Positions 1 through 34,518 are shown, counted from the stretch's first letter. The stretch is 46,277 nucleotides of DNA from Deltaproteobacteria bacterium (GCA_004356455.1 SMWZ01000028.1:1-46277); one strand, 5' to 3'. The notes: generated from the sequence alone by a model not told the origin. Translations and numbers: made by a program.

Positions 1-71
1 AAAGCTGACGCGCTACCAGGCTGCGCCACGCCCCGATCGCGGGAGAGTCTAGCGGGCCTGACGTTCGCGCT

Positions 72-1274
72 CTAGCGCGGGGTGAGGCGGATGGGGATCT
101 CGCGGATCGAGTTGGTGAGGTTCGAGCGTAGTCGTCTGGAGGGACCGGTGAGCTCGGCCCGGCTGAAGCAGCGGAAGAACTCCTCGAAGAAGACCTGCGC
201 CTCGAGGCGAGCGAGACGAGCGCCGAGGCAGAAGTGCTCCCCCCAGCCGAAGGCCAGGTGCGGGTTCGGGTCGCGCCGGATGTCGAAGCGGAAGGGCTCC
301 TCGAAGACCTCCTCATCGAAGTTGGCCGAGGTGTAGTGCAGCGCCACGCGATCGCCCTCCCGGATCTTCTTGCCCCGCAGCTCTACGTCGCGAGTGGCCG
401 TGCGCCGAAAATAATGCACCGGTGTGGTCCAGCGCAGCATCTCTTCGATCGCGGTCGGGAGCAGGGCAAAGTCGGACTCGAGCTCGCGGTAGGCCCGAGG
501 GTTCTCAAGCAGGGCCAGCATGGCCCCCGCGAGCAAGCTGCGGCTGGTCTCGTTGCCGGCGACCGCGATCTGCACGAAGAGAGCCGCGAACTCCACCTCG
601 TTCAGCGGGTGCCCCTCAAGCTCCGCGTTCAACATGAGCGAGATCAGATCCTTGCCCCCCCTGCCCTTGCGCTCGTTCGCCAGCTTGAAGCCGTAGGCGC
701 CCAGCTCGGTCGCCGAGTTGGCCGCGGCATCCCTCGCCGCGACCTCCGGATCGGTCCTTCCGATCAGCTTGTCCCCCAGCTCGACGATCCGCAGGCGATC
801 CGCCTCGGGGATGGCCATGATCTGGTTGATGGTCTGTAGCGGCAGCTCGGCGGCCAGATCGCGCACGAAATCGCAGTCGCGCTTCTCGGCTGCAACCTGC
901 ATGATCTCGCGCGCCCGTGCGCGCAGCCACGGCTCCAGCTCGGCAATCATGGTCGGCGTGAAGGCGTCGAGCACGATGCGCCGGATTCGGATGTGCTCGG
1001 GTGGGTCCATGCTCAAGAGCTGGGTGCGCATGGCGGCGAGCTGCTGAGGCGACTGGTCCTCGATGATGATGCCCCCGCGTGCGGCGGAGAAGGTCTGCCA
1101 ATCCTTGGACGCCGCCATTACATCGGCGTGCTTGAGCAGAGCCCAGTAGCCGGCGCCCTCGGGCAGCTCCTGCCAGAAGACGGGCTCCTGGGCGCGCAGC
1201 AGCGCGAAGGTCTCGTGGGGCACCGCCTTTACGTAAAGGTCGGGATCGTAGATGTTGACGTCCTCGAGCTTCAC
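72..1274 (-). CDS. Cytochrome P450, CYP125/CYP124/CYP126-like clan
   Basis: 400 aa; I-helix AVAGNETSR, EEMLR (ExxR), heme motif FGWGEHFCLG. GTG start overlaps the ferredoxin TGA (GTGA). Exact family not assignable by eye. Confidence 0.9.
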   Translation of the reverse strand: MKLEDVNIYDPDLYVKAVPHETFALLRAQEPVFWQELPEGAGYWALLKHADVMAASKDWQTFSAARGGIIIEDQSPQQLAAMRTQLLSMDPPEHIRIRRIVLDAFTPTMIAELEPWLRARAREIMQVAAEKRDCDFVRDLAAELPLQTINQIMAIPEADRLRIVELGDKLIGRTDPEVAARDAAANSATELGAYGFKLANERKGRGGKDLISLMLNAELEGHPLNEVEFAALFVQIAVAGNETSRSLLAGAMLALLENPRAYRELESDFALLPTAIEEMLRWTTPVHYFRRTATRDVELRGKKIREGDRVALHYTSANFDEEVFEEPFRFDIRRDPNPHLAFGWGEHFCLGARLARLEAQVFFEEFFRCFSRAELTGPSRRLRSNLTNSIREIPIRLTPR

Positions 1275-1468
1275 GCTTCCTCCAGCAAGAGCGCCCGCGT
1301 GGGGCAGTACTTGACCGCCAGCTCGACCTTCGAGCGTAGATCCTGCGGCGGCTGCTCCTGGAGCAGCACGAGCTCCCCGCTCTCCTCATCGAGCTCGAAG
1401 ACCTCCGGTGCCTCGGACGCGCACACGCCGTGCGCCTGACACAGGTCCCGATCGAGCTTGACCTTCAT
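1271..1468 (-). CDS. fdx: 3Fe-4S ferredoxin (P450 redox partner)
   Basis: 65 aa MKVKLDRDLCQAHGVCASEAPEVF...YCPTRAL; CxxHxxC...CP motif like the Mtb ferredoxin Rv0763c next to cyp51. The true start is ATG 1468, inside the longer track ORF. Confidence 0.93.
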   Translation of the reverse strand: MKVKLDRDLCQAHGVCASEAPEVFELDEESGELVLLQEQPPQDLRSKVELAVKYCPTRALLLEEA

Positions 1469-1481
1469 CGGATGGTCTCCC

Positions 1482-2882
1482 TCAGGCACGCCGCCGATAC
1501 CGCACGCGGCAGGGCTGCACGAGCTGCACCACCATCTTCGAGTGGTCGTTGCGATAGCTCTCCGATGGCTGGAGCATCTCGAAGCTGTAGCGGCGCAGCA
1601 GGATGCTGAAGATCGCCTTGAGCTGCATGATGGCAAAGGCGGCCCCGATACAGCGATGCCGCCCCCCGCCGAAGGGGATCCAGGCGAAGACGCGCTGGTC
1701 CTCCTGGCGCCCGGGCCGGTAGCGTTCCGGGTCGAAGCGTTCAGGGTCGGGAAAGCATTCCGGCATTCGGTTCGAGACGGCGATCGATGCGGCCACCAGT
1801 TTCCCCGCCGGGACGGTCCAGCGCTTGTAGTGGAAGTCGTACATGACCTTACGCAGCACGATGATGAGCGGTGGATGCAGACGCAGCGTCTCCTTGATCA
1901 CGTTCTCGAGCTCGGGGATCTCGCGCAGCGCCTGGTAGCTCACGTCGACCCCATCGGCGTAGATCTGCTCGAGCTCGGCCACGACCCGATCCATGTAGAC
2001 GGGGTTGCGCAGCAGCTCGATCAATGTCCACGCGGCCGTGCCGGAGGTCGTGTGGTGGCCTGCAAACATCATAGAGATGAAGATGCCGGTGATCTCGTCC
2101 GGCGTGTAACGGGGGCGACCGCCATCGTGATACAGGCTCGTGAGCACCTGGAGCAGGTCGTTGGGCTTGCGGCCCTCGGCCTTTCGCTGCTCGATGATCC
2201 CGACGATCATCTCCACCAGCCGCCTGCGGGCCTGGTCCCGCTTGCGGAAGGACGGCAGCGGTAGATAGGGGTTTACATACGCGATCGCGTCGGTGCCCCT
2301 CTCGAGCTCGTGATACTGGGTCGCGAACTCGGGGGTCAGCTCCTCTCGGAACTCCTTTCCGAGCAGGCAGGCGCTCGAGGTATAGATCGTGAGCTCCGCG
2401 AAGAAGTCGAGCAGGTCGATCTCCCCCTCTTCGCCCCAGCCCGCGAGCATGCGCTCGGTCTCGTCCGCGATCACCTGGGCGTGACCACGCATGAATTTGT
2501 CACGCAGCGAACGGTTGCGGAGCGCCTGCTTGCGCTGCTCGGGCGGCGCGTCGAAGACAACGCCCGCGCCGAAGATCGGCTTCATGAAGGGATAGGCCGC
2601 GGCCTGATCGAGCTGCTCGTCGGACGCGCGAAAAAAAGCCTCGTTTCCCTCCTCGCCCGTCAGCAGGACAACACGGTGGCCCGCCAGGTTGAACTCGCCG
2701 ATCTCTCCGCACTCGTCGCGCACCCGTTGCATCAGCGCGATCGGCCGGCGCCGCAGCTCGAGCAGATGACCGAGCCAGGGCAACCCTCCGGAGAGCTTGG
2801 GGGGATCGGAGCCCCTCGCAGCAGGCGCGGGCGTCTGAGTCGCAGCGGGAGACGCGACGGAGGCCGGGGTCGCGCTACTCAT
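1482..2882 (-). CDS. cyp51: Sterol 14-alpha-demethylase CYP51 (CYP51B-type)
   Basis: Long segments near-identical to recalled Mtb CYP51B1 (LMQRVRDECG, LDQA.AYPFM.PIFG.GVVFDA, FFAELTIYTSSACL.GK, FISMMFAGHHT, SYRNDHSKMVVQL); heme motif FGGGRHRCIG. Start chosen at ATG 2882 (track ORF starts 2912). Confidence 0.95.
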   Translation of the reverse strand: MSSATPASVASPAATQTPAPAARGSDPPKLSGGLPWLGHLLELRRRPIALMQRVRDECGEIGEFNLAGHRVVLLTGEEGNEAFFRASDEQLDQAAAYPFMKPIFGAGVVFDAPPEQRKQALRNRSLRDKFMRGHAQVIADETERMLAGWGEEGEIDLLDFFAELTIYTSSACLLGKEFREELTPEFATQYHELERGTDAIAYVNPYLPLPSFRKRDQARRRLVEMIVGIIEQRKAEGRKPNDLLQVLTSLYHDGGRPRYTPDEITGIFISMMFAGHHTTSGTAAWTLIELLRNPVYMDRVVAELEQIYADGVDVSYQALREIPELENVIKETLRLHPPLIIVLRKVMYDFHYKRWTVPAGKLVAASIAVSNRMPECFPDPERFDPERYRPGRQEDQRVFAWIPFGGGRHRCIGAAFAIMQLKAIFSILLRRYSFEMLQPSESYRNDHSKMVVQLVQPCRVRYRRRA

Positions 2883-2991
2883 CCCGAGCCCAGCCGAGCT
2901 CCCCCAGCGCACGTGCGGTGGCTGCGCCGATCCCGGACGACGCGCCCGTGACGAGCGCGGTGCGAGCCTCGGTAGCGAGCTTCCGGCTCAC
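2875..2991 (-). pseudogene. Remnant of a short-chain dehydrogenase (Rv0765c-like), N-terminal Rossmann fragment only
   Basis: Hand translation: MSRKLATEARTALVTGASSGIGAATARALGELGWARDE*. Contains the TGxxxGIG SDR motif; GTG start overlaps the cyp123 TGA; ends on the cyp51 start. Confidence 0.85.
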
Positions 2992-4166
2992 GGGGAGAAC
3001 TCAATCGGCATGGACGCGAAGCCACGCACGTTGATCGAGTGTACGCGCACCAGCTTCTCCCAGGCGATCTCGAAATTAGGGAAGCGCCTTTGGACCTCTT
3101 CCAGAGCTACCCGGCCCTCGAGCCGGGCCAGGGCCGCCCCCATACAGAAGTGCGTTCCGTAGCCGAAGGAGAGCATGGCGTTGGTGTTGCGCATGAGATC
3201 GAAGCGATCCGGATGCTCCCACACGCGTTCGTCGCGGCTCGCCGCCCCCAGGATCACGACCAGGCGGTCTCCCTCCTGGAGCTTCTCGCCGTGCAGCTCC
3301 AGATCCTGGGTCAGAGTGCGCGCCAGGGCCTGGGTCGAGCCGTCGTAGCGCAGCGTCTCCTCGATCCAGCGTGGGATCAAGCTCGGGTCGGAGCGAACCT
3401 TCTCGCGCTCCTGGGGGTTCTTCGAGATCCAGTAGAGGGCGTTGCCGAGCAGCTTCGTGGTGGTCTCGTTGCCCGCGATGATCATCAGGAAGAGAAAGCC
3501 GAGGACCTCTCGTGGGGTCAGACGATCGCCCTCGATCTCCGCCGCAAGCAGCGCACCGGTGAGATCGTCGTGAGGATGCTTCTCCCGGTCCGCGACCAGC
3601 TCCTGGAAGTAGTTGAGTATCTTTGCGGCCGCCTCCATGCCGGCGGGAGGGACGTCCAGCATGCCGTCCTCGCGGTGCAGGACGGTATCCGCCCAGCTTC
3701 GCAGGGGATCGCGATCCGCTTCGGGCACACCCAGCATCTCGCTGATGACGTCCATCGGGAGCTTCCCCGCGAACTCCTGGATGAAGTCACACTCGCCCCG
3801 GCCGATGAATCCATCGATGTGGCCCGTCGCGATCTCGCGAATGCGCGGCTCCAGGTTGGCCACGCGGCGCGGCGTGAAGGCGCGGTAGACCAGGGCGCGC
3901 ATGCGCGTATGGCGCGGTGGGTCCATCGCCAGGAATGACATGGTGGCATCCGCATCCGGGTGGGTAGCCGACGGATCGAGGGAGACCCCGTCGCGGCTTG
4001 AGTAGAGCTCTGTATCCCGCAGCGCGGCCTGTACGTCGGCGTGCCGCGACAGTGCCCAGAACCCGAGCTCTCGGTTGCGATAGGCGGGCGCCTCGTCGCG
4101 AAGACGCTTATAGATGGGGTACGGGTCCTCCTGGGTTGCGTAGGCGTAGGGGTTGTACTCGACCAT
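2988..4166 (-). CDS. cyp123: Cytochrome P450, CYP123-like
   Basis: 392 aa from ATG 4166; matches recalled Mtb CYP123 (EFAGKLPMDVISE, AD.VLHREDG..DVPP, FLFLM.IAGNETTTKLL, VRVHS.NVRGFA); heme motif FGYGTHFCMG. Confidence 0.88.
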   Translation of the reverse strand: MVEYNPYAYATQEDPYPIYKRLRDEAPAYRNRELGFWALSRHADVQAALRDTELYSSRDGVSLDPSATHPDADATMSFLAMDPPRHTRMRALVYRAFTPRRVANLEPRIREIATGHIDGFIGRGECDFIQEFAGKLPMDVISEMLGVPEADRDPLRSWADTVLHREDGMLDVPPAGMEAAAKILNYFQELVADREKHPHDDLTGALLAAEIEGDRLTPREVLGFLFLMIIAGNETTTKLLGNALYWISKNPQEREKVRSDPSLIPRWIEETLRYDGSTQALARTLTQDLELHGEKLQEGDRLVVILGAASRDERVWEHPDRFDLMRNTNAMLSFGYGTHFCMGAALARLEGRVALEEVQRRFPNFEIAWEKLVRVHSINVRGFASMPIEFSP

Positions 4167-4195
4167 GCGCGAGGACCTCGCTCGAGCTTTGGGCC

Positions 4196-4224
4196 ACCTT
4201 ATTCCATTTACATTTCGCCTGCAA
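4196..4224 (-). promoter_or_regulatory. Putative sigma70-type promoter for the P450 operon
   Basis: Minus strand TTGCAG-17 nt-TAAGGT, 30 nt upstream of the cyp123 ATG, in an AT-rich intergenic patch. Confidence 0.5.
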
Positions 4225-4242
4225 GGCAAATTCTGATATGCT
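4214..4242 (+). promoter_or_regulatory. Putative sigma70-type promoter (extended -10) for dehydrogenase-TetR-MBL
   Basis: TTCGCC-17 nt-TATGCT with TGn directly before the -10; overlaps the divergent promoter. Confidence 0.45.
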
Positions 4243-4277
4243 GGCGCCCGCATTAGCTCGGGGGATCGACCATCACC

Positions 4278-5135
4278 ATGCGTGCGGGATTCATCGGACT
4301 CGGCAACATCGGTGCGCCCATGGCTGAATGGCTGGTGAAGAGCTCCTTTGAAACGACCGTCTACGACACCAACCCCGAGGCGGTCCGGGAGCTGGTCGCC
4401 GCGGGAGCCCGAGCCGCGACCTCGGGCCGCGAGCTGGCCGCGGCCAGTGACGTGATGGGCGTCTGCGTGCGCGATGACGCCGACGTGCTCGACGTGGTGC
4501 TGGGCGAGGATGGACTGCTGGCGGGAGCCACCCCCGGCAGCGTGATCGCGCTCCACAGCACCATCTTGCCGCGCACGGTGACAGAGGTGGGCCGGCTCGC
4601 TGCCAAACGCGGCGTGGGTGTGGTGGACGCATGCATCACCGGAGGCCGGGCGGGCGCCCAGCAGGGCACGCTCACCTATATGGTGGGGGGCGAGAGCGAG
4701 CACCTGGAACGTGTGCGCCCCGCCTTGGAGACCTCGGCCGCCAAGATCATTCACACGGGGCCGCTGGCCAGCGGCGCCGCCACCAAGCTCTGCAATAACT
4801 TGATGACCTATCTGGGGTTCCTCGCGGCCTTCGAGGCCACTCACCTCGCGCGCAACGCGGGTCTCTCGCAGCAGGCGCTCGAGGAAGTCACCGCCACGAA
4901 CGGAAACATGAGCCAACAGATGCTGCGCTTCCTGGCGCTGCATAAGGTCTCACCCGAGCAGCAGAAGAGCGAGAGCTTCCAGACGGTGATCCGCAGCTAC
5001 GCCGACCTGGCCGAGAAGGATCTGACCGTCACCCTCGCCTTTGCGCGCGAGAACGGCGTGACCCTGCCCGGCACCGCGCTCTGCCAGCAGCTGATGGCGC
5101 GGGTCTACGGAGTTCTGGACGAGAATCGCCGCTGA
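4278..5135 (+). CDS. NAD(P)-dependent beta-hydroxyacid dehydrogenase (3-hydroxyisobutyrate dehydrogenase family, Rv0770-like)
   Basis: GFIGLGNIGAPMA Rossmann motif, VDACITGG, catalytic KLCNN. Confidence 0.9.
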   Translation: MRAGFIGLGNIGAPMAEWLVKSSFETTVYDTNPEAVRELVAAGARAATSGRELAAASDVMGVCVRDDADVLDVVLGEDGLLAGATPGSVIALHSTILPRTVTEVGRLAAKRGVGVVDACITGGRAGAQQGTLTYMVGGESEHLERVRPALETSAAKIIHTGPLASGAATKLCNNLMTYLGFLAAFEATHLARNAGLSQQALEEVTATNGNMSQQMLRFLALHKVSPEQQKSESFQTVIRSYADLAEKDLTVTLAFARENGVTLPGTALCQQLMARVYGVLDENRR

Positions 5136-5149
5136 GACAAGGCCCAGCC

Positions 5150-5806
5150 GTGACCGAAGCTACACACACCCACCTGCCGCTTCCCCCCAGAGGGCGTCGC
5201 TCGCACGCCGAGCGCACAGCGGAGACGCGCGCAAGGATCATCGCGGCCGTGGTGGAGAGCATCGCGGAGGTGGGATTTCAGCGCACCACGGCCAGCGAGA
5301 TCGCACAGCGAGCGGGCGTCACCTGGGGCGCCGTTCAGCATCACTTCGGGGCCAAGGACGGCATGCTCGTGGCCGCACTGGAGAACTCTTTCAATCGCTT
5401 CGCCCAGCGACTCGGAAATATCCCGCTCGAGGGAACCTCGCTCGAGAAACGTGCCTCGCTCTTCATCGATCGCGCCTGGGAGCACTTCAGCAGCGCCGAG
5501 TATCGCTCCACCTTCGAGATCCTGTTGAACTACCTCGGACGCGATGACCTGGAGCAGCACCCGACCTGGCAGGAGCGGATGTTCCGAGCCTGGGACCGGA
5601 TCTGGCTGCGCCTGTTCGGGGACGCTCCGCTTCCGCGACGGCGTCGTTTCGTGCTCCAGCACTATACGATCTCCGCGCTCTCGGGCCTGGCCTCTACACT
5701 CATGTTGGAAGGCGGAGAGGCGCGGCTGCGGAAGGGCGAGCTCGATCTGCTCAAGGACACCCTGGCACGAGAGCTCAGCCAGGGCATGCAAGACAGCGTG
5801 CGCTGA
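5150..5806 (+). CDS. TetR/AcrR family transcriptional regulator
   Basis: N-terminal HTH GFQRTTASEIAQRAGVTWGAVQHHFGAKDGML. Confidence 0.93.
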   Translation: MTEATHTHLPLPPRGRRSHAERTAETRARIIAAVVESIAEVGFQRTTASEIAQRAGVTWGAVQHHFGAKDGMLVAALENSFNRFAQRLGNIPLEGTSLEKRASLFIDRAWEHFSSAEYRSTFEILLNYLGRDDLEQHPTWQERMFRAWDRIWLRLFGDAPLPRRRRFVLQHYTISALSGLASTLMLEGGEARLRKGELDLLKDTLARELSQGMQDSVR

Positions 5807-5840
5807 AGCCGGCATGAGACGAATTTTCTAGACTGTCCCG

Positions 5841-6926
5841 ATGGCGCGCCGACAAGAACAGGAGAGTGCTCGCAAGGAGGTGACGGAGGTCGCCCCGAAC
5901 GTGCTCCGCATGGAGCTGCCGATCCACATGCCGGGACTCGGCCACGTGAACTGCTACGCGCTGATCGATGGCGAGGGGGCGACGCTGGTGGATCCCGGTC
6001 TGCCCGGGCCGCTCACCTGGCGCGCCATCCAGGACCGGCTGAAGCGCGCGGGGCTGCGCGTGAAGAACGTGCATACGATCATCGTGACGCACTCCCATCC
6101 CGACCATTTCGGCGGTGCATTGCGCCTCCAGCGAGCGTCTGGGGCGCGCGTGGTCGCTCATCGCAGCTTCAGCTTCGGACCGATCCGGCCCGTCATCCTG
6201 GAGCCCGAGGTCTCGGTGGATGATCTGTCGGCACAGGTCGAGGCGCAGGTCGAGACGGAGGCCGAGGAAGAGGAAACCCGACCCCGCACAAGAGACCGCG
6301 GCCTAACCCCGTGGGGCGGCCAACGACCCGGCTTCACCCTGCGTCAGCGTCTCGTCTGGAGAACCTTGCGCTTTCTCCAGCGCGGCTCGTTCCTGCCCAC
6401 CATCACCCACCCCGTGAAGCATGGCGACGCGCTGCGGCTGGCCGGCCGCGACTTCTTCATGCTGCACACCCCGGGTCACACCGAGGATCATCTGTGCCTG
6501 CACGATCCGGAAAGCGGGACGCTGCTGGCGGGCGACCACGTACTGCCCACGATCACGCCCCATATCTCCGGTCTAACCTCGACGGCCGATCCGCTGGCCG
6601 ATTTCTTCGACTCGCTCGACCGCGTGGGCGAGGTGCCCAACGTCAAGCAGGTGCTACCCGCCCACGGTCACCCGTTCACCGACCTGCGCGGCCGCGCCCA
6701 GGCGATCAAACGCCACCACCACGAGCGGCTCGCTAAGGTCAAAGCGATCTCACGCGAGCTCGGCCCGGCCAGTGTCCAGGCCTTCTCCCACAAACTCTTC
6801 CGGCCGCGAAGCTGGGGTCCCATGGCCGAGAGCGAGACCTACGCGCATCTCGAGCACCTGCGCCTCCTGGGCGAGGCCGAGTGTGTCAAGGGCAAGGGTG
6901 GCCAGCTGGTGTACGTGGCAGGCTGA
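5841..6926 (+). CDS. Metallo-beta-lactamase fold hydrolase
   Basis: THSHPDH, HTPGHTEDH, LAGDH and PAHG metal-binding motifs; C-terminal winged-helix-like tail (ESETYAHLEHL). Confidence 0.9.
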   Translation: MARRQEQESARKEVTEVAPNVLRMELPIHMPGLGHVNCYALIDGEGATLVDPGLPGPLTWRAIQDRLKRAGLRVKNVHTIIVTHSHPDHFGGALRLQRASGARVVAHRSFSFGPIRPVILEPEVSVDDLSAQVEAQVETEAEEEETRPRTRDRGLTPWGGQRPGFTLRQRLVWRTLRFLQRGSFLPTITHPVKHGDALRLAGRDFFMLHTPGHTEDHLCLHDPESGTLLAGDHVLPTITPHISGLTSTADPLADFFDSLDRVGEVPNVKQVLPAHGHPFTDLRGRAQAIKRHHHERLAKVKAISRELGPASVQAFSHKLFRPRSWGPMAESETYAHLEHLRLLGEAECVKGKGGQLVYVAG

Positions 6927-6944
6927 GTCCGGCTCGAGCCGCGC

Positions 6945-8997
<2,053 letters not shown>

Positions 8998-9020
8998 CTA
9001 CCTTGGCCGGCAGGTCCGGG

Positions 9021-10196
9021 TCACGCGCTCCCCAGAACGAGCCCACTGGTCGGGACGCCGGTGCCCGCCGTGACGAGAACGTGCTCGACATCCGCGATCT
9101 GGTTCACCGCCGTGCCCCGGACCTGGCGCACCGCCTCGCAGATCCCATTCATGCCGTGGATGTAAGCCTCTCCGAGCTGGCCGCCGTTGGGGTTGATAGG
9201 GAGAGCGCCGTCGAGCTCGATGTTCCCGTCCGCGATGAAATGACGCGCCTCGCCCCGATCGCAGAAGCCCAGCTCCTCGAGCTGGGTAAGCACGAAGGGC
9301 GTGAAGTGATCGTAGATCACGGCGCACTGAACGTCGGCCGGCTCAAGACCCGAGTGCTGCCACAGCTGATGACCCACCAGACCCATCTCCGGCAGCCCGG
9401 TGATGTCGCTGCGGTAGTAGCTGGTCATCACCTCCTGGTCCAAGCTCGAGCCTTGTGCGCTGGCGCGGATCAGGGCCGGAGGCTGCGCCAGATCCCGGGC
9501 GCGCTCGCTACGCGTCACGACCAGAGCCACCGCACCATCGCTCTCCTGACAGCAGTCCAGCAGATGGAGCGGCTCGACGATCCAGCGGGAGCTCTGATGC
9601 TCCTCGAGCGTGATCGAATGCTCGTAGAACCAGGCCTTGGGGTTGGTCGCGGCGTGCTTGCGGGCCGCCACGGCGACACGGCCGAAGTCCTCACTGGTGG
9701 CGCCGTACTCGTGCATGTACCGACGAGCGAACATGGCGACCCAGGCCGCCGGCGTTACCAGGCCGAAGGGCGCGTACCAATGGGTCGGGATCTGAGCGCC
9801 GGGCGGCGGGGGCGGCGGCTGCTGGCCCGATCCGAAGCGACGCCCGGAGCGCTCGTTCAAGGCTCGGTAGCACACCACGGCGTCGGCCGAGCCGGTTGCC
9901 ACGGCCATGGCCGCCTGATGGATCGTCGCGCAGCCGGCACCGCCACCGTAGTGAACGCGGCTGAAGTGGGTCAGGCTGGGAATGCCGAGACCGCGAGCCA
10001 CATCGATCTCAAGATTCGAGTCCTGCGCGAAGGTGACCATGCCATCGATATCGGCCGGCGAGAGGCCCGCGTCGGCGATGGCGGCCCGGACGGCTTCGAC
10101 GGCCAGCTGGAGCTCGCTGCGACCCGATTTCTTCGAGAACTCGGTCGCCCCAATCCCAACGATCGCCGCCTCATCCTTGAGCGTGGACCTCGGCAT
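9021..10196 (-). CDS. ltp2: Ltp2-like steroid side-chain retro-aldolase (thiolase fold, lipid-transfer protein family)
   Basis: Matches recalled Mtb Ltp2 (AAIVGIGAT.FSK.SGRSEL, HYGGGA, LLDCCQE.DGA, YDHFTPF, GGQLGEAYIHGMNG, HVLVTAGTGVPTSGL). Start chosen at ATG 10196. Confidence 0.92.
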   Translation of the reverse strand: MPRSTLKDEAAIVGIGATEFSKKSGRSELQLAVEAVRAAIADAGLSPADIDGMVTFAQDSNLEIDVARGLGIPSLTHFSRVHYGGGAGCATIHQAAMAVATGSADAVVCYRALNERSGRRFGSGQQPPPPPPGAQIPTHWYAPFGLVTPAAWVAMFARRYMHEYGATSEDFGRVAVAARKHAATNPKAWFYEHSITLEEHQSSRWIVEPLHLLDCCQESDGAVALVVTRSERARDLAQPPALIRASAQGSSLDQEVMTSYYRSDITGLPEMGLVGHQLWQHSGLEPADVQCAVIYDHFTPFVLTQLEELGFCDRGEARHFIADGNIELDGALPINPNGGQLGEAYIHGMNGICEAVRQVRGTAVNQIADVEHVLVTAGTGVPTSGLVLGSA

Positions 10197-10204
10197 CCCC
10201 GGGC

Positions 10205-10609
10205 TCAACTCGCGCGTGGCCGCCACAGCGGCAGCGTCCACTCGTCATGCACGCGAACGAAGCACACCTCCACGGGCATGCCGATGCAGACGTTAGCCGG
10301 ATCGATCTCGATCACATTGCCAACGACGCGTGTCCCCTCCTCGAGCTCCACCAGCGCAACCGCGAAGGGAGGATCGAACCCCGGCACGGGAGGATGGTGA
10401 TGAACCACGAAGCTGTAGACCTCTCCGCGACCGCTGGCCGTGACGTGGTTCCACCCCAGCGACTGACACGACGAGCACATGGGACGGGGCGGGTGGCGCA
10501 GCGTCCCGCACGACTGACAGCGCTGGATGCGAAGCTCGTCCTTCTCGACCCCTTCCCAGAAGAACGCCGAGTCCGCGTTCATGGTGGGCTGAGGCCGCCG
10601 GGCCGTCAA
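10205..10609 (-). CDS. DUF35 Zn-ribbon/OB-fold protein (equivalent to the ChsH2 C-terminal domain)
   Basis: AFFWEGV...ELRIQRCQSC...RHPPRPMCSSC...SGRGEVYSFVVHH...ALVELEEG; TTG start overlaps the upstream TGA. Confidence 0.9.
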   Translation of the reverse strand: MTARRPQPTMNADSAFFWEGVEKDELRIQRCQSCGTLRHPPRPMCSSCQSLGWNHVTASGRGEVYSFVVHHHPPVPGFDPPFAVALVELEEGTRVVGNVIEIDPANVCIGMPVEVCFVRVHDEWTLPLWRPRAS

Positions 10610-11640
10610 TTTTCCGGCACGCCGTAACGAAGCAGGGTGAACATGTTGGTGCCCACGATCTCATCACGTTGGTTGTAGTAGGTGTTCAGGTTCTTCTGGA
10701 AGTATCCCAGTCCGAGGCGTGTGCGCTTCAGGGGAGAGCAGTCGAGCAGCTCCACGGTAGAGGACACTCGGTCGCCCGGGCGCAAAGGCCGACCATAGGC
10801 TTGAACCGAGACCGTCGCAATCGTATCAGTCGCGCCCGGCGGCGTGAACATCGCGCTGCGTCCGGCCCCGTCTCCTGTGCGAGGCGGCCATGGCTTGCGC
10901 TCGAGGCAGTCGACGTCCGGTGCATTCGCATCTACGCCACTATGACCCGCACGCCCCATCGACCAGGTGATCAGCGCCATGGGCGGTGCGATCACCCCCC
11001 CGTGCCGGCTCTTTCTCGCGTATTCAGCATCGATGTAGAGGGGGTTACCGTCTTCGACCATGTCACACCAGTACATGATCTGGACCTCGCTCACGGGATA
11101 GCCTCCCCGCATGAGCGGACTGACCTTTCCGAGCCGCTCGCGGGCAAAGTCGGGAATCTGCGGGTCCACTTCCAGTTCGGGCTTCTTCAGCTCGAGCGAC
11201 GGCCGAACCGCTCCAGAATCGCGCGAGGGCATTACGAGCGTAGCGCTTGCACGTGCCGCCACCCCCAGCTCGTTCGACGCCTCCAGCCCGACCTCGACCC
11301 GGCACTCGTCGCCTTCCCGAAACTTCCGCTTGACGCTGCCCTTTACGAGGGCGACATCGCCCGGCACAAGCTGCCCAAGCATCTGCAGACTGGTCTCTCG
11401 AAAGTCGCTCTCGGGTCCGCACCAATCCGTCACGAAGCGTCCGAAGAGCGCCTGCTCGAACATGGTGTTGACGAACATGTCGCGGTTGCCGATCGATTTC
11501 GAGTAGCCCGGATTGTGATGGTACGGCATCAGGTCGCGCGTGCCGCACACACCGAGCACGAGCGTCTTGAGCGTAATCGGGAAGCGCAGGACCGGAAGCT
11601 TCTCCCCCTCGCACACATCCTCCCAGTACTTGAAGTCCAT
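10606..11640 (-). CDS. Double hotdog (MaoC) steroid enoyl-CoA hydratase: ChsH1-like domain fused to ChsH2-N-like domain
   Basis: N-half TRDLMPYHH...DMFVN...RFVTDWCGP resembles ChsH1 with the catalytic D-x4-H intact. C-half PVSEVQIMYWCDMVEDGNPLY...GVIAPPMA..TWSM resembles the ChsH2 MaoC domain. Confidence 0.85.
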   Translation of the reverse strand: MDFKYWEDVCEGEKLPVLRFPITLKTLVLGVCGTRDLMPYHHNPGYSKSIGNRDMFVNTMFEQALFGRFVTDWCGPESDFRETSLQMLGQLVPGDVALVKGSVKRKFREGDECRVEVGLEASNELGVAARASATLVMPSRDSGAVRPSLELKKPELEVDPQIPDFARERLGKVSPLMRGGYPVSEVQIMYWCDMVEDGNPLYIDAEYARKSRHGGVIAPPMALITWSMGRAGHSGVDANAPDVDCLERKPWPPRTGDGAGRSAMFTPPGATDTIATVSVQAYGRPLRPGDRVSSTVELLDCSPLKRTRLGLGYFQKNLNTYYNQRDEIVGTNMFTLLRYGVPEN

Positions 11641-11649
11641 CAGCTCGGA

Positions 11650-12366
11650 TCAGTCCAGCAGCGAAGGATCGCGCGCGAGCTCGCGACGCGCGTAGGCTTC
11701 GAAGAGCATCTCACCGTACTCCAGCGCATAGCGTGACAGGGCTTCGGCGGTCTCCGAGTCAAGCTCCTCGCGCTGCTTGCCCATGCACGCCACCTCGTAG
11801 GCCTTGCGGCAGCGCCACTCGAAGCTCAGTGCTCGCACCAGCACCTCGCCGACGGTCGTGGCCGTAACCAGCGTCCCGTGCTGCGCCAGGATGGCCATGT
11901 CGGCCGAGCCATAGGCCGCCGCCAGCCGGGCCGCCACCGCAGGCGTGAGGACCGCCCCCTCGTACTCAGTGTAGAGCACGGCCTTCCCGCCTCCGTTGGC
12001 ACCTGACTGATCGAGCAGCGGCGGGAGCTCGCCGGCTGCGGCCCAGATGGTTCCGTAGGGAGGGTGGTTGTGCAGCGCCACGCGGATGTCCGGTCGCGCT
12101 CGATGCAGCTCGCCATGAAAGACAATGGTGGGATTCGCTCGGCCCTCGCCCTGCAACACCTGGCCAGCGTAGTCCACGCGCAGGATGTGACTGGCACGAA
12201 CCTCCTCCCAGAAGAGGCCAACGGGGGTCACGAGCAGCGTCTCGTCGTCCCGGTCTCGGATGCTTACATGCCCGGCCAGCTTGTCGTCATAGCCCTGGGA
12301 GCCCAGGATGCGGACCAGCAGCGCGAGCTGCTGGCGAGGGGAAAACTTAACAGCCGGGTCACTCAC
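11650..12366 (-). CDS. Class II aldolase/adducin family protein
   Basis: GHVSIRD, LLVTPVG, FHGELHRARPDIRVALHNHPPY, ILAQHG. Confidence 0.88.
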   Translation of the reverse strand: MSDPAVKFSPRQQLALLVRILGSQGYDDKLAGHVSIRDRDDETLLVTPVGLFWEEVRASHILRVDYAGQVLQGEGRANPTIVFHGELHRARPDIRVALHNHPPYGTIWAAAGELPPLLDQSGANGGGKAVLYTEYEGAVLTPAVAARLAAAYGSADMAILAQHGTLVTATTVGEVLVRALSFEWRCRKAYEVACMGKQREELDSETAEALSRYALEYGEMLFEAYARRELARDPSLLD

Positions 12367-12409
12367 AGTGAGCCTTTGTACCAGAAATCACGCTCGGCGG
12401 GGCTGAGGG

Positions 12410-13030
12410 CTAGTTTCCTGACCCTGCTTCGGAGGCGAGGTGGACACGCAGCAGCGGGATGAAGGCGCGGGTGGCCTGGCCCCGGTGACTGATCGCGTCC
12501 TTCTGCTCCGGCTTCAGCTCCGCCATGGTCCGCTCGCCCTTCGTATGCTGCGCGACGAAGTAGGGATCGTAGCCAAAGCCTCCGCTTCCGCGCGGCGCCT
12601 CGATCAGTCGGCCCTCACAGGTGCCCCGCGTTGTCGCTACGATCTCGCCGTTGGGCTGGGCCAGTGCCATCACGCACACGTAGCGTGCGCTCCGGTCCTT
12701 CACACCCTCGAGCTCACGCATGAGCTTGGCGTTGTTGGCAGAGTCATCACCATGGATCCCGGCGTAGCGCGCCGAGCACACCCCAGGAGCACCGTTCAGC
12801 GCGTCCACCTCGAGTCCGGAGTCCTCTCCCACCGCCCAAAGTCCCGTAGAGCGTGCAGCGGATGCCGCCTTCAGGCGCGCATTCTCATCGAATGTCTTAC
12901 CGCTCTCCTCGACCTCGCCCGCCTCCGGGTGCGCAGCCAGGGTCTCGGTGCGGATGGGCTCTTTCTCGAGCAGCGCCATCAGCTCACGCAGCTTGCCCTC
13001 ATTCCGGGTCGCCAGCAGCAGCGTCTTCAC
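12410..13030 (-). CDS. rdgB: Non-canonical purine NTP pyrophosphatase (dITP/XTPase)
   Basis: LATRNEGKLRE, EESGKTFDENARLKA, EDSGLEVDALNGAPGV.SARY, GFGYDP, ISHRG; GTG 13030 overlaps the rph TGA. Confidence 0.96.
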   Translation of the reverse strand: MKTLLLATRNEGKLRELMALLEKEPIRTETLAAHPEAGEVEESGKTFDENARLKAASAARSTGLWAVGEDSGLEVDALNGAPGVCSARYAGIHGDDSANNAKLMRELEGVKDRSARYVCVMALAQPNGEIVATTRGTCEGRLIEAPRGSGGFGYDPYFVAQHTKGERTMAELKPEQKDAISHRGQATRAFIPLLRVHLASEAGSGN

Positions 13031-13743
13031 TGCTCGAGTGCGAGCTTCTGCAGCGCGGTGAGCTCGACGATCCCCTTCTCGGCCAGATCCAGCATCTGCC
13101 CGAGCTCCTCGCGATCGAACGTCCCGGACTCCCCGGTCCCCTGAACCTCCACCAGCCGTCCACGTCCTGTCTGCACGATGTTCATGTCGACCTCGGCGCG
13201 CGCGTCTTCCTCGTAGCTCAGGTCGAGGAGCACGTCGCCACCGATCACTCCGACCGAGATTCCGGCCACGGAGTCTCGGAGCGGGCTGCGTTTGAAGTAG
13301 TTGCGCTCCACCAGTCGATTGCACGCCGCGGCAAGCGCCACGTAGGCGCCGGTAATGGCCGCGGTTCGGGTGCCGCCATCGGCCTGAAGCACATCGCAGT
13401 CCACGTACAAGCAGCGTTCCCCGAGTTGCTCCATGTCGGTCACAGCGCGGAGCGAACGGCCGATCAGCCGTTGAATCTCCTGAGTACGTCCCGAGGGCCT
13501 GCCGCGTGTGGCCTCGCGCTCGGTGCGCGTGTCGGTAGAGCCTGGAAGCAGGGAGTACTCGGCCGTGACCCATCCCCGGCCCGTTCCGCGCAAGAAGGCC
13601 GGGACCTGCTCGGCCACGTGCACCGTACACAGTACCAGCGTGCGGCCCGCCCGTATCAACGCCGACCCCGCCGGGTTCTGCACAAAACCCATCTGGATCT
13701 CCACGGGCCGAAGCGCGTCGGGGCTACGACCATCCGCTCTCAT
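13027..13743 (-). CDS. rph: Ribonuclease PH
   Basis: MRADGRSPDALRPV, GWVTAEYSLLPGST, RTQEIQRLIGRSLRA, DCDVLQADGGTRTA, DLSYEED. Confidence 0.97.
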   Translation of the reverse strand: MRADGRSPDALRPVEIQMGFVQNPAGSALIRAGRTLVLCTVHVAEQVPAFLRGTGRGWVTAEYSLLPGSTDTRTEREATRGRPSGRTQEIQRLIGRSLRAVTDMEQLGERCLYVDCDVLQADGGTRTAAITGAYVALAAACNRLVERNYFKRSPLRDSVAGISVGVIGGDVLLDLSYEEDARAEVDMNIVQTGRGRLVEVQGTGESGTFDREELGQMLDLAEKGIVELTALQKLALEQ

Positions 13744-14537
13744 CAGCGCGAGTCCTCCTGTTTCAGACGGGCGTGCCGGGCATCGCGGTAGCTGCGTACC
13801 GCACGCGCAACGGCATTGGCGATCGCGTCCTGATACTGCTGTGTGCGAAGCCGTCTCGCCTCGTTGGGGTTGGTGAGAAATCCGATCTCGATCAGCGCCG
13901 CCGGCATATTCACCCCCATGAGCACTACGAACGGCGCCTGCTTCACGCCACGGCTATCCCCGTTCAGGCGCGCAAGGTTACGCTGGATCGCGCCTGCGAT
14001 CTCGCTCGAGGAACGCATGTGGTCCGAGATGATCAGATCGCCGAGGATCCCCGCCACGATGTCAGCGCTGTCGAGAACGGCCCCCTCCTGGCCGAAGATG
14101 TCGTTCTCCATCATGGCTACACGCATGGCCGCCTCGTCACTGGCATCGACCGACAGGAAGTACGTCTCGGGTCCGCGCGCCCTGCCGCTCTTGGCAGAGT
14201 TGGCGTGAATGGAGAGATAGAGGTCCCCATGCGCGCGGTTGGCAATCGCCGAGCGCTCGGACAGCGCAACGAACCGGTCGTCTTTTCTAGTGAACACCAC
14301 ATCGATCTTGGCAGCTATGAGCGAAGCCCCGATCCGGCGCGCCACCTGCAGAACCACGTCCTTCTCCCGGATCCCTGACGCGCCACGCGCACCGTAGTCC
14401 GCGCCCCCGTGTCCCGGATCGATGACAACCAAATCGAAGCGGTCATAGGGCGCCACGTCCGACGCAAAGGTAGTCGTCACCGTCCCGAGGGTGAAGAGTG
14501 CGATCCATACGAGGTTCATGCGAATTCGCCGATCCAT
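13743..14537 (-). CDS. N-acetylmuramoyl-L-alanine amidase (Amidase_3)
   Basis: Signal peptide; IDPGHGG, EKDVVL, SIHANS and IEIGFLTN Zn/catalytic motifs. Alternative start ATG 14519. Confidence 0.93.
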   Translation of the reverse strand: MDRRIRMNLVWIALFTLGTVTTTFASDVAPYDRFDLVVIDPGHGGADYGARGASGIREKDVVLQVARRIGASLIAAKIDVVFTRKDDRFVALSERSAIANRAHGDLYLSIHANSAKSGRARGPETYFLSVDASDEAAMRVAMMENDIFGQEGAVLDSADIVAGILGDLIISDHMRSSSEIAGAIQRNLARLNGDSRGVKQAPFVVLMGVNMPAALIEIGFLTNPNEARRLRTQQYQDAIANAVARAVRSYRDARHARLKQEDSR

Positions 14538-14568
14538 CAGCTGCTGGCGCAGGCTATCGGATCACGCT

Positions 14569-15372
14569 TCAGACGTCGACCATGCGAGCCCGTTGCCCGC
14601 GCGGATGCGAGTGGCCAACTCCCGCGATCTTCTGCAGGGCTTCGAGCGTATGGACCCCATGCAAGCGTCCGCGCTGGAGGAGCTCGTCCCAGAGGTGAGC
14701 GGTCATCTCCGCGTCGCCCAGCGCGCGGTGGCGGCCATGTTTTGGGATGCCGAGCTGATCGGCCAGCACGTCCAGCCCGTAGCGGGGGGCGCGCACCCAC
14801 TTGCGGGCCAGCCGTAACGAGCACAGAAAGGACGGCAAAGGCAGCGATCCAGTGTGATTCTTCCATGCCCGCTCGAGGAAGCCGCGGTCGAAGGGCGCGT
14901 TATGGGCCACCAGCACCTCGACCCGATGCCGACGCAAAACACGTCCGAACACCCTCAGCGCCTCCGCTTCGCTCGGGGCATCGATGGTCTCTCCCGCGTC
15001 GATTCCGGTGAGGCCCGTGATGAAGGCGGGGATGGGAATCTCCACATCGATCAGGGTCGAGTAACGCTCGAGCGTACGACCGGCGCATCGCACCACCAGG
15101 CCGATCTCAAGGATCCGATCCCGATCTGCCGCGAGACCCGTGGTCTCGAGGTCGACCATGCCAAACACCACGTTGTCGAGCCGTCTACCCGCGCGCGCTT
15201 CCAGCTCGGCAAGTACCCCAGGTGCGAGGCGTTTCCGGGCCCAGCGAGGAAGCGGTAATCCGGCGGGAACACGCAGCCAGTTGCGAAGTTTGGCGCCGTC
15301 GAGATGCTCGACGGTCCCTATGTGTCGCGACGCATCCATCCCTGTCCCCCCGATTGGCAGCGTAGCAGCCAC
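14569..15372 (-). CDS. DEDDh 3'-5' exonuclease (DnaQ/PolC-like)
   Basis: VDLETTG, AHNAPFD, HRALGDA motifs; start uncertain. Confidence 0.9.
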   Translation of the reverse strand: MAATLPIGGTGMDASRHIGTVEHLDGAKLRNWLRVPAGLPLPRWARKRLAPGVLAELEARAGRRLDNVVFGMVDLETTGLAADRDRILEIGLVVRCAGRTLERYSTLIDVEIPIPAFITGLTGIDAGETIDAPSEAEALRVFGRVLRRHRVEVLVAHNAPFDRGFLERAWKNHTGSLPLPSFLCSLRLARKWVRAPRYGLDVLADQLGIPKHGRHRALGDAEMTAHLWDELLQRGRLHGVHTLEALQKIAGVGHSHPRGQRARMVDV

Positions 15373-15430
15373 CTCGTGAATCCTCTAGCCTCTTGATTGC
15401 GCTACCATCATCCCTGGGGTTCCTGAACTC

Positions 15431-16774
15431 GTGGCACAGGCAGAAAAGAAAGTCCGGATCCTCAGGGTCATGATCCGGGACGAGCCAGGGTATCTTGGCA
15501 AGCTCTCGCAAGCGATCGGCGAGTGTGGCGCGAACATCGGCGACATCGTCAAGCTGCGCACGACTGGCAACTACAACGTGAGGGAACTCGAGCTCTACCT
15601 GGACAGCGAGTCGCAGCTGCAGGCCATAATGGTTGAGCTCGATCGCCTCGAGGGCATCAATGTCGCGGTCGTTTACGATCCGGTGTTGGAGCTACACCGA
15701 GGCGGGAAGATTCGGATGCGGAGCACGGTTGCAATCGAGCGGTTGGGTGACGTGCGCAAGCTCTACACGCCGGGCGTTGCGACGGTCTGTCAGGAGATCC
15801 ACGCTCACCCCGACCGCGTCTACGACTACACCGCGCTGGGGCAGACGGTGGCAATCATCACCAACGGCACCGCGGTTCTGGGGCTCGGGAACATCGGAGT
15901 GCACGCGAGCCTTCCCGTGATGGAGGGCAAGGCTGCGCTGCTGGACCGCCTGATTGGGCTGAGCGGGATCCCGATCCTCATCCCCACGCGAGACGTCCAG
16001 ACTTTCGTGGATACCGTGATCCAGATTGCGCCCTCTTTTGGAGCCATCCAGCTCGAGGACGTGGCGGCTCCCGAGTGTTTCGAGATCGAGGATCGCCTGA
16101 CAAAGGAGCTCCCCATCCCGGTCATGCACGACGATCAGCACGGCACCGCGGTGGTGGTCGTGGCCGCGCTCCACAATGCAACCGCAGCATCGGACGAGCC
16201 GATCGATCGTCGCACCATTGGGTTGCTGGGACTGGGGGCAGCGGGAATCGGCATCGCCAAGCTCCTACGTGCCTGCGGCGTGAAGCAACTGCTGGGCTGC
16301 GACGTCAAGCAGGAGGCCCTGCGCCGATTCGAGGGCATCGGCGGCCGCGCCAGTGATCTCGATACGGTCATGCGGGAGGCCTCCATCGTGATCGGAACCA
16401 CGGGCCAGCCGGGGCTGGTCTCGCCGAATCAGGTACAGCCGGGGCAGGTGATTCTGGCGCTCTCCAACCCCTATCCCGAGATTCAGCCTCGGGACGCGCT
16501 CTCAGCCGGCGCCGCGCTCGCGGCCGACGGCCGGTCCGTCAACAACGCACTCGGTTTTCCCGGAATCTTCCGTGGCGCACTCAACGCGCGGGCGCGCCGC
16601 ATCAACGACGTAATGAAGCTGGCCGCGGCAGAGACCATCGCACAGTACGCGGAACCCGGGGAGCTGGTTCCGAGCCTGCTTCACCCGGATGCCCATCATG
16701 CCGTCGCAGAGGCCGTGGAGCAGGCCGCCCGCGCTAGCGGGGCAGGCCAGGTGGTCCCAGACTCCCAGACATGA
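15431..16774 (+). CDS. NAD-dependent malic enzyme with N-terminal ACT domain
   Basis: N-terminal ACT (DEPGYLGKL); YTPGVA, TNGTAVLGLGNIG, MEGKA, IQLED, HDDQHGTA, GLGAAG, ALSNP, NNALGFPG. Confidence 0.93.
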   Translation: MAQAEKKVRILRVMIRDEPGYLGKLSQAIGECGANIGDIVKLRTTGNYNVRELELYLDSESQLQAIMVELDRLEGINVAVVYDPVLELHRGGKIRMRSTVAIERLGDVRKLYTPGVATVCQEIHAHPDRVYDYTALGQTVAIITNGTAVLGLGNIGVHASLPVMEGKAALLDRLIGLSGIPILIPTRDVQTFVDTVIQIAPSFGAIQLEDVAAPECFEIEDRLTKELPIPVMHDDQHGTAVVVVAALHNATAASDEPIDRRTIGLLGLGAAGIGIAKLLRACGVKQLLGCDVKQEALRRFEGIGGRASDLDTVMREASIVIGTTGQPGLVSPNQVQPGQVILALSNPYPEIQPRDALSAGAALAADGRSVNNALGFPGIFRGALNARARRINDVMKLAAAETIAQYAEPGELVPSLLHPDAHHAVAEAVEQAARASGAGQVVPDSQT

Positions 16775-34159: not shown

Positions 34160-34239
34160 GGGCGCATGGTAATGCGAAAGCCCCAGGGAGTCAGGTGCGA
34201 GCGGGCCGCTCACAGCTCGGCTGAAGCGGCAGCTTGGAT

Positions 34240-34262
34240 GCACCCGCTGCCAAAGCGGGTGC
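34240..34262. other. GC-rich hairpin between the small ORF and leuS
   Basis: GCACCCGCT-GCCAA-AGCGGGTGC, 9-bp perfect stem; no U-tract on either side. Confidence 0.5.
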
Positions 34263-34292
34263 CGCCGGCTGGGTGCGGATCAGGGGCCCGCC

Positions 34293-34430
34293 TCAGCGGA
34301 ACAGCGTTGCGAGGAGCAGCAGCAGGGCCCAGCCGGCAAGCACGCGCAGGATGAGATCCTTCTCCAGCCGTCGTACCGCGTCGGCCGGCAGTCGGAACTC
34401 AAAGGGTCCGTCGAGGCGGATCCGCGCCAT
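34293..34430 (-). CDS. Small 45-aa protein with C-terminal hydrophobic tail (below the ORF-track cutoff)
   Basis: MARIRLDGPFEFRLPADAVRRLEKDLILRVLAGWALLLLLATLFR*; GC3-rich codons; no clear RBS. Confidence 0.5.
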   Translation of the reverse strand: MARIRLDGPFEFRLPADAVRRLEKDLILRVLAGWALLLLLATLFR

Positions 34431-34518
34431 ATCGTGGAGTGGCAGGGAGGCCCACAAAGGTGTCGTGGGACCACGGATGACGCTTGCGGGCCTATCAGAT
34501 CCAACTAGACTGCAAACG

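Follow-up and report, generated by a model that had tools for sequence, protein, structure and literature searches.

The CYP51 of Mycobacterium tuberculosis (Mtb) has long counted as an orphan enzyme, since Mtb itself synthesises no sterols; its role has been unclear since the 1990s and its origin is disputed. Its gene lies in the region Rv0762c-Rv0771, which comprises Bsr, fdx, cyp51, the short-chain dehydrogenase/reductase (SDR) gene Rv0765c, cyp123, the TetR gene Rv0767c, aldA, Rv0769, Rv0770, and Rv0771. A similar arrangement was seen in a DNA stretch of 46,277 nucleotides from a Deltaproteobacteria bacterium (GCA_004356455.1 SMWZ01000028.1:1-46277), hereafter called the window, which is one entire contig (C83) of a metagenome-assembled genome (MAG). 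How did this gene order come to stand in such a host, and what might it do there? We consider it likely that the window holds a native Myxococcota copy of the Rv0762c-Rv0771 sterol-tailoring module, which would have been shared anciently, trimmed in this genome, and used for processing scavenged sterols.

The CYP51-CYP123 gene cluster

The original prediction, made from the sequence alone, had read fdx, cyp51, an SDR remnant, and cyp123 on one strand with a divergent β-hydroxyacid dehydrogenase gene, all of which were confirmed (Table 1). In the direction of transcription, the minus strand carries the genes for a CYP123-family cytochrome P450, the SDR stump, CYP51, the ferredoxin, and a CYP125-like P450. 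The plus strand, diverging from this P450 cluster, carries those for a HIBADH-like dehydrogenase and then a TetR-family regulator. The CYP125/124-like P450 gene, the TetR gene, and the end of the contig 71 nt past the former had not been mentioned in the prediction. Two loci served for comparison. The Mycobacterium abscessus contig FSBR01000038.1 (L001) has CMD, HIBADH, two SDR, and aldehyde dehydrogenase genes on one strand and TetR, P450, SDR, CYP51, ferredoxin, SnoaL-like, P450, and SDR genes on the opposite strand. The locus L002 of the Myxococcota MAG GCA_046754285.1 (G003), from the same family as the window genome, has a P450-CMD-HIBADH set diverging from CYP123-SDR-CYP51-ferredoxin.

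The window CYP51 matched Mtb Rv0764c (CYP51B1) with 609 bits (63% identity over 438 aa), Methylococcus CYP51 with 500 bits, and eukaryotic CYP51s with 200-300 bits. It was 60% identical to the M. abscessus protein and 75% to that of L002 (60-61% between these two), and lay above the family threshold of >40% full-length identity to established members. Many Myxococcota MAG proteins were 70-79% identical to it, and many of its close relatives are P450-ferredoxin fusions. CYP51 proteins carry the signatures Y-x2-F/L-x2-P-x-F-G-x2-V-x-F/Y-D in the B'-helix, A-G-H/Q-H-T-S/T in helix I, and F-G-x-G-x-H-x-C-x-G in the haem loop. All three were present in the window protein, as YPFMKPIFGAGVVFD, FAGHHTTSG, and FGGGRHRCIG, respectively, and were invariant across the CYP51 alignment.

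Only 14 nt lie between the stop codon of CYP51 and the start of the ferredoxin gene; in known Cyp51-fdx-Bsr clusters, the two are likewise adjacent, or else fused. Its product has the motif C-x2-H-x2-C...CP, as CQAHGVC...CP, and was 43% identical to the M. abscessus ferredoxin and 48% to that of L002 (44% between these two). In the PDB, its second-best match was the ferredoxin part of the CYP51 fusion protein from Methylococcus. We predict it to be a 3Fe-4S-type ferredoxin acting as the redox partner of CYP51.

P450 proteins are assigned to the same family at ≥40% identity. Along its entire length, the CYP123-type P450 of the window shared 52% identity with the P450 that takes the CYP123 position in the M. 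abscessus contig, a reference called CYP123 by its location between TetR and SDR-cyp51 and not by locus tag, and 65% with the L002 orthologue (55% between these two). It was far less similar to any other P450 of the M. abscessus contig; conversely, when the M. abscessus CYP123 was used as the query against the window genome, this gene matched at 52% and all other P450s at 35% or less. In the tree, the window protein fell inside the clade holding all actinobacterial sequences at the CYP123 position, apart from the paralogues, with support of 99-100. Identity and clade placement thus assign it to the CYP123 family, as represented by a reference named by position.

Between the CYP123 and CYP51 genes, positions 2890-2967 of the minus strand corresponded in a tblastn search to residues 12-37 of the L002 SDR (88% identity, E 1e-12) and also matched the M. 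abscessus SDR (56% identity, E 5e-6); the intact proteins of L002 and M. abscessus are 40% identical. The predicted SDR remnant is thus real despite a gap of only 105 nt. The open reading frame (ORF) of the stump reads VSRKLATEARTALVTGASSGIGAATARALGELGWARDE followed by the stop codon. Its GTG overlaps the CYP123 stop codon as GTGA, as that of the intact gene in the relative does, and its own stop codon overlaps the CYP51 ATG. The SDR gene has thus lost about 690 nt by deletion, and a short coupling ORF is left. This stretch was spanned unbroken by contigs of four independent runs. Taken together, these comparisons show that CYP123, SDR, CYP51, and ferredoxin each have their orthologue in Actinomycetota, with the gene order preserved.

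The HIBADH protein was 65% identical to that of L002 and 38% to that of M. abscessus (36% between these two), and was the best match for the M. abscessus HIBADH within the window genome. It scored under every NCBIfam equivalog cut-off (168.7 bits for TIGR01692, with a cut-off of 291.6), and is best assigned to the wider β-hydroxyacid dehydrogenase family only. The TetR protein was 54-71% identical to the products of TetR genes at the equivalent position in related loci of the Myxococcota class. In the divergent promoter region, a 26-bp imperfect palindrome reads ATTTGCCTTGCAGGCGAAATGTAAAT on the minus strand. The same motif, as ATTTACATTGCAnGCGAATGGTAAAT, recurs at the corresponding intergenic position in 6-7 related loci and occurs once in the whole window genome when up to 6 mismatches are allowed; it is likely to be the operator of the adjacent TetR.

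The CYP125-like P450 gene overlaps the ferredoxin stop codon by 4 nt. The best PDB matches of its product were CYP125MRCA (428 bits), followed by CYP125 and CYP124 (270-285 bits). A CYP125-like gene was rarely found after the ferredoxin gene in related loci. In the four independent runs, the contigs over positions 1-1000 of the window, which contain the 3' half of this gene, were short and numerous and differed in some bases, and each run showed roughly double the depth seen elsewhere. This pattern points to microdiversity among strains or to a paralogous copy, which probably also explains why the contig ends there.

Table 1 Features of the window around the CYP51-CYP123 cluster.
Feature	Position	Strand	Basis or remark
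CYP125/CYP124-type P450 (400 aa)	72-1274	minus	PF00067; last gene before contig end
Ferredoxin (65 aa), Rv0763c counterpart	1271-1468	minus	Fer4_15 and Fer4_13 matches
CYP51 sterol 14α-demethylase (466 aa), Rv0764c counterpart	1482-2882	minus	Identity to Mtb CYP51
SDR stump (38 codons), Rv0765c-type	2875-2991	minus	tblastn; TGASSGIG Rossmann motif
CYP123-family P450 (392 aa), Rv0766c counterpart	2988-4166	minus	Identity and clade placement
Imperfect palindrome (26 bp), putative TetR operator	4206-4231		Within divergent promoter region 4167-4277
HIBADH-family β-hydroxyacid dehydrogenase (285 aa), Rv0770 position	4278-5135	plus	NAD_binding_2 and NAD_binding_11
TetR-family regulator (218 aa)	5150-5806	plus	TetR_N
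FadA5-type thiolase	7792-8955	minus	NF005889; steroid side-chain degradation context
Ltp2-type lipid-transfer protein	9021-10241	minus	NF005892; steroid side-chain degradation context
MaoC/FAS1-type hydratase	10606-11640	minus	Pfam; steroid side-chain degradation context

Some further observations concern these gene families. An ORF at 2988-4943 was rejected as a single gene; it consists of the CYP123 gene and an antisense reading of the dehydrogenase gene. A Myxococcota-only clade of CYP123 paralogues (L009, L085, and L108-L110; 42-47% identical) was found, often located right after Bsr or a true CYP123 gene. Some relatives thus have two CYP123-type genes in the module. Another genome of the same family (G027) has two separate CYP123-CYP51 modules, on its contigs C74 and C77, with gaps of 0.75 kb and 3.0 kb. 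In five genomes of the same class (G033, G044, G045, G046, and G054), a second, distant CYP51 type (L103-L107; 41-48% identical to that of the window) adjoins a ferredoxin gene. Two of the five (G045 and G054) also hold the main type, indicating that there are two CYP51 lineages in the class. In the M. abscessus contig, a tandem duplication (7505-11781) runs from the middle of cyp123 through the SDR gene into cyp51 and gives a 671-aa "CYP51" that repeats about 220 residues; the duplication may have arisen in assembly or be genuine in that isolate.

Distribution, host, and ancestry of the module

The distribution of the module was surveyed in 61 genomes of the window's class. CYP51 (at ≥55% identity) was found in 35 of them, CYP123 (at ≥53%) in 31, and both in 30. 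The two genes lay within 6 kb of each other in 20 class genomes, CYP123 usually being the upstream gene and on the same strand as CYP51. A gap of about 0.8 kb between them corresponds to the SDR gene, one of 2.3-3.0 kb to the SDR and aldehyde dehydrogenase genes, and one of about 0.1 kb to nothing in between, as in the window. A scan with one genome per species gave at least 582 relatives, of which the best 80 comprised 19 delta-/Myxococcota-type MAGs and 61 Actinomycetota, the latter from Nocardia, Rhodococcus, Mycobacterium, Pseudonocardiaceae, Streptosporangiales, and Acidimicrobiia; Methylococcaceae and other Pseudomonadota fall outside these 80. A full block of CMD-HIBADH-SDR-Aldedh diverging from TetR-CYP123-SDR-CYP51-fdx-Bsr recurred in Mycobacteriales and Acidimicrobiia, and the Myxococcota versions include TetR and HIBADH diverging from CYP123-SDR-Aldedh-CYP51-fdx-Bsr. 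When only loci flanked by 5 kb or more in each direction are counted, CYP123 was present in 30 of the 50 actinobacterial and 5 of the 14 Myxococcota-type ones. The module is thus widespread in the window's class and in Actinomycetota, and each of the two phyla has its own deep clade, which agrees with the original prediction that it had been transferred between phyla or was an ancient shared module.

The original prediction had also proposed a Gram-negative host such as Myxococcota, with gatB and leuS among the housekeeping genes by which this could be checked. The named matches of GatB (64-71%) and LeuS (68-74%) were all from Myxococcota, Myxococcales, or Deltaproteobacteria MAGs, with no actinobacterial entry among them. 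Identical CYP51 rows placed three named MAGs in the GTDB family of the window, namely "Myxococcota bacterium" (G003), "Myxococcales bacterium DT_69" (G008), and "uncultured delta proteobacterium" (G029), and a further one, "FCS_M_Myxococcota_02" (G043), in its class. Furthermore, a Mla-type set of MlaE, MlaF, MlaD, and an auxiliary lipoprotein is encoded on the same contig. These data support the host being an uncultured diderm of Myxococcota from marine sediment. The MAG amounts to 3.40 Mb in 236 contigs and is 89.8% complete with 2.2% estimated contamination.

Two other genes of this contig are recorded here. The MlaE permease of the MlaE-MlaF-MlaD-lipoprotein operon (26832-27971, minus strand) has an N-terminal STAS domain, and positions 34234-35640 of the plus strand, diverging from leuS, encode a bacterial homologue of deoxyhypusine synthase that is full-length (PF01916, 275 bits). 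In addition, six MAG loci with a Myxococcota-type CYP51 (L003, L005, L006, L014, L020, and L028) bear the NCBI labels Thermodesulfobacteriota, Spirochaetaceae, Opitutales, Desulfobacterales, Spirochaetales, or Halioglobus. GatB of five of the six MAGs (none was found for L003) was 50-55% identical to that of the window; the corresponding values are 50-57% for same-class genomes and 46% for Mycobacterium. These six labels are probably wrong, the GatB agreement being suggestive and not a classification.

Trees of CYP51 and CYP123 were then compared. The CYP51 tree had 88 rows. The Actinomycetota formed one clade (SH-aLRT 99) whose branching tracks taxonomy, with Acidimicrobiia first, followed by Streptosporangiales, Pseudonocardiaceae, and Mycobacteriales, and the window stood among its class relatives. 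The CYP123 tree likewise gave the Actinomycetota as one clade (support 100/99) in both quick and careful runs, with the Myxococcota-only paralogue clade as the next outgroup. In both genes, the window was nearest to class relatives (66-76% identity) and 52-64% identical to Mycobacteriales. The agreement of the two trees shows that, at the level of these phylogenies, the unit and not one gene alone has a shared history. In both trees, the Actinomycetota were placed within a grade of Myxococcota sequences with support of only 85-93 when rooted on paralogues; for CYP51, these were distant paralogues from the same class, which brings long branches together, and this root was not relied on for direction. 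The trees thus lean toward Actinomycetota nested among Myxococcota sequences, and a single Myxococcota CYP123 clade appeared in only 4% of the bootstrap trees. These results suggest that the module was shared between the two phyla anciently as a unit and diversified in each, and that it is native to the lineage of the window.

Three other explanations for the presence of the module were weighed against this ancient sharing. The cluster could be an assembly or binning artefact, with actinobacterial sequence fused near 12300-12500 to a contig from a myxobacterium, and the fragmentation and estimated contamination of the MAG leave some room for it. However, the region 10500-14500 occurred in no fewer than 18 runs, which belong to seven studies on subsurface and marine sediments, and Logan contigs from four runs of four studies, mapped on positions 1-16000, covered 997-16000, 10012-16000, 6989-16000, and 5576-16000 with 2-7 mismatches and flat depth; that over 997-16000 was a 15.3-kb contig with 5 mismatches. 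The possible mis-join, which the original prediction had named as a point to check, is thus crossed unbroken in four independent assemblies, meaning that the contig is not chimeric. The module also stands on multi-megabase contigs of relatives, such as the 2.79-Mb contig of L008 and the genome G051, which is a single contig, and we regard an artefact as hardly credible. A recent horizontal transfer from a Mycobacterium-like actinobacterium to the myxobacterium of the window could account for the Mtb-like gene order and for a CYP51 score that is higher with Mtb than with Methylococcus. It is nevertheless at odds with the greater identity to class relatives, with the separate and well-supported actinobacterial clade in both trees (99-100), with the occurrence of the module CYP51 in more than half of the class genomes surveyed, and with a uniform G+C content of 64-68% over the first 34 kb, which holds both the cluster and housekeeping genes and has no break near the cluster. 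From these comparisons, a recent transfer into this host is taken as excluded, its probability being minimal.

An ancient move from Actinomycetota to Myxococcota, and not the reverse or common descent, is a different matter. It is in Actinomycetota that the module is most complete and most regular, and reciprocal monophyly was not rejected by the approximately unbiased (AU) test, so that either direction is possible. The nesting of the actinobacterial clade within the Myxococcota grade in both trees, the rarity of a single Myxococcota clade among the bootstrap trees, and the sister paralogue clade of CYP123 in Myxococcota all argue the other way, and we consider this ancient donor unlikely.

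Predicted role in sterol processing and relation to known clusters

The module of the window lies physically inside a steroid degradation cluster. The nearby thiolase gene product scored 670 bits against NF005889 "steroid 3-ketoacyl-CoA thiolase" (cut-off 515), and that of the nearby Ltp2-type gene scored 676 bits against NF005892 (cut-off 469). Three genes of KshA-type 3-ketosteroid 9α-hydroxylases (KshA_C) were also found in the genome. No match to SQHop_cyclase_C (squalene-hopene/oxidosqualene cyclase) or squalene epoxidase was obtained in the whole genome, within the 89.8% completeness of the MAG. Since no genes for the cyclase and the epoxidase were found and steroid-catabolic genes are present, the cluster probably processes scavenged sterols. 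A 241-aa protein with a C-terminal Rieske domain (residues 144-212) is encoded at 6945-7670 on the minus strand, at the end of the steroid gene block.

Several published activities are relevant to such processing. Steroid hydroxylation is known for the CYP123 of M. abscessus (PMC12799577). Sterols derived from lanosterol are acted on first by Mtb CYP51 and then by its partner Bsr, Bsr homologues of uncultured myxobacteria act on the CYP51 product, and lanosterol is converted to an 8(14)-unsaturated C19 steroid by a Mycobacterium (PMC13277303). In the window genome, the module appears to have been trimmed, with the SDR gene cut to a stump that still bridges CYP123 and CYP51, and a CYP125-like P450 gene would have been added, with no Bsr found. 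We propose that the cell, having no sterol maker, would import 14α-methyl sterols such as lanosterol, from which CYP51 and the ferredoxin would strip the 14-methyl group. The CYP123 and CYP125-like P450s might then hydroxylate the ring system or the side chain, the neighbouring thiolase, Ltp2, and hydratase would shorten the side chain, and the KshA-type oxygenases encoded elsewhere in the genome would open the rings. The TetR regulator probably represses the divergent promoters via the 26-bp palindrome until a sterol ligand arrives. It is plausible that the cluster is a front-end that renders scavenged 14-methyl sterols degradable.

Alternatively, the cluster could serve de novo sterol biosynthesis, as in Methylococcus or sterol-producing myxobacteria. 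Lee et al. grouped the uncultured Myxococcota that have Cyp51 and Bsr with the sterol producers (PMC13277303), and the cyclase and epoxidase genes could be missed in a MAG of this completeness. The genome-wide lack of matches to both of these enzymes, the steroid side-chain degradation genes as immediate neighbours, the three KshA-type genes, and the loss of Bsr and the SDR are difficult to reconcile with biosynthesis, which we regard as improbable.

Returning to a native module for scavenged sterols, several observations weigh against parts of it. A single Myxococcota CYP123 clade was not rejected (AU p = 0.138), and hence no direction of transfer can be claimed; Methylococcaceae and the alpha- and gammaproteobacterial members of the clade are outside both trees. 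As for the Mtb-like gene order, the cyp123-SDR-cyp51-fdx order given in the original prediction stood, whereas its extension to the flanking genes held only in part. The window TetR gave no BLASTP alignment with that of M. abscessus at E ≤ 10, and its gene position differs as well. The TetR genes of the two phyla thus appear unrelated, the window gene being no orthologue of Rv0767c, which implies that regulation was not inherited along with the module. The equivalence of the HIBADH gene to Rv0770 appears weak and positional only: in Mycobacterium sp. SMC-14, the module HIBADH scored 141.7 bits and a gene elsewhere 150.1, whereas in an Acidimicrobiaceae MAG the module HIBADH was the best reciprocal match. 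No match to M. abscessus Bsr was found in the whole window genome by tblastn (E ≤ 1e-4). In relatives, Bsr directly follows the ferredoxin gene, a place occupied in the window by the CYP125-like P450 gene; Bsr might still be encoded past the end of the contig or within the 10% that the MAG lacks. Finally, the catabolic role is suggested by gene neighbourhood and by absences in a MAG that is about 90% complete.

Compared with the Mtb region, the window shares CYP123-SDR (as a stump)-CYP51-ferredoxin on one strand with a HIBADH-type gene diverging, and relatives of the host also hold the aldehyde dehydrogenase, second SDR, CMD, and Bsr genes. CMD is 37% identical between L002 and M. abscessus, and none is present in the window. 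Unlike the Mtb region, the window belongs to a diderm of another phylum, has its SDR gene reduced to a stump, and is without the Bsr, aldA, Rv0769, and CMD genes. It has instead a CYP125-like P450 gene after the ferredoxin gene and steroid side-chain genes nearby, and its TetR gene, unrelated to the mycobacterial one, adjoins the dehydrogenase gene.

In 2026, Lee, Giner, and Welander reported Cyp51, ferredoxin, and the 8,14-sterol reductase Bsr as a distinct clade and cluster, known from Methylococcaceae, Mycobacteriales, and uncultured Myxococcota, and proposed joint inheritance; the CYP123 and dehydrogenase genes are unmentioned in the main text (PMC13277303). The CYP51 tree placed the window CYP51 in this same distinct clade, and its cognate ferredoxin gene adjoins it. 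Unlike in those clusters, Bsr, a KSI/SnoaL-like protein, was not found in the window or the genome, so that its co-localisation with the other two genes is not seen here. The trees described above show, in addition, that CYP123 shares the history of CYP51. The window is thus an altered member of a known cluster type, with no Bsr found, the SDR gene deleted, an extra P450 gene, and a catabolic neighbourhood. Lamb et al. (2020) noted the Mtb operon Rv0767c-Rv0763c and called the synteny around bacterial CYP51 genes variable (PMC7947880). As with the CYP51fx of Methylococcus capsulatus (PMC7947880), the window has a soluble bacterial CYP51 with a small 3Fe-4S-type ferredoxin; unlike that fusion, the two are encoded by separate genes, and no sterol synthesis genes were found.

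That CYP123 travels with CYP51 in Myxococcota, along with most of Rv0762c-Rv0771, appears to be a new, though incremental, finding, and the gain is modest because the core link between the phyla was published in 2026 (PMC13277303). That result is extended here to CYP123 and the flanking genes, and a unit conserved across two phyla qualifies the view of variable synteny around bacterial CYP51 genes (PMC7947880). Almost all of the Mtb operon is found in Acidimicrobiia and in an uncultured class of Myxococcota that is common in marine sediments. More tentatively, and with rather less than even confidence, the Mtb CYP51 operon might be a branch of an ancient catabolic front-end for 14α-methyl sterols, gained as a unit by Actinomycetota from sediment Myxococcota. 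If this is true, the window would argue more directly than any genomic data so far that CYP51 and CYP123 feed lanosterol-type sterols into the degradation of side chain and rings. With steroid-catabolic genes nearby and no sterol synthesis genes found, the window offers a testable hypothesis for the role of the Mtb operon.

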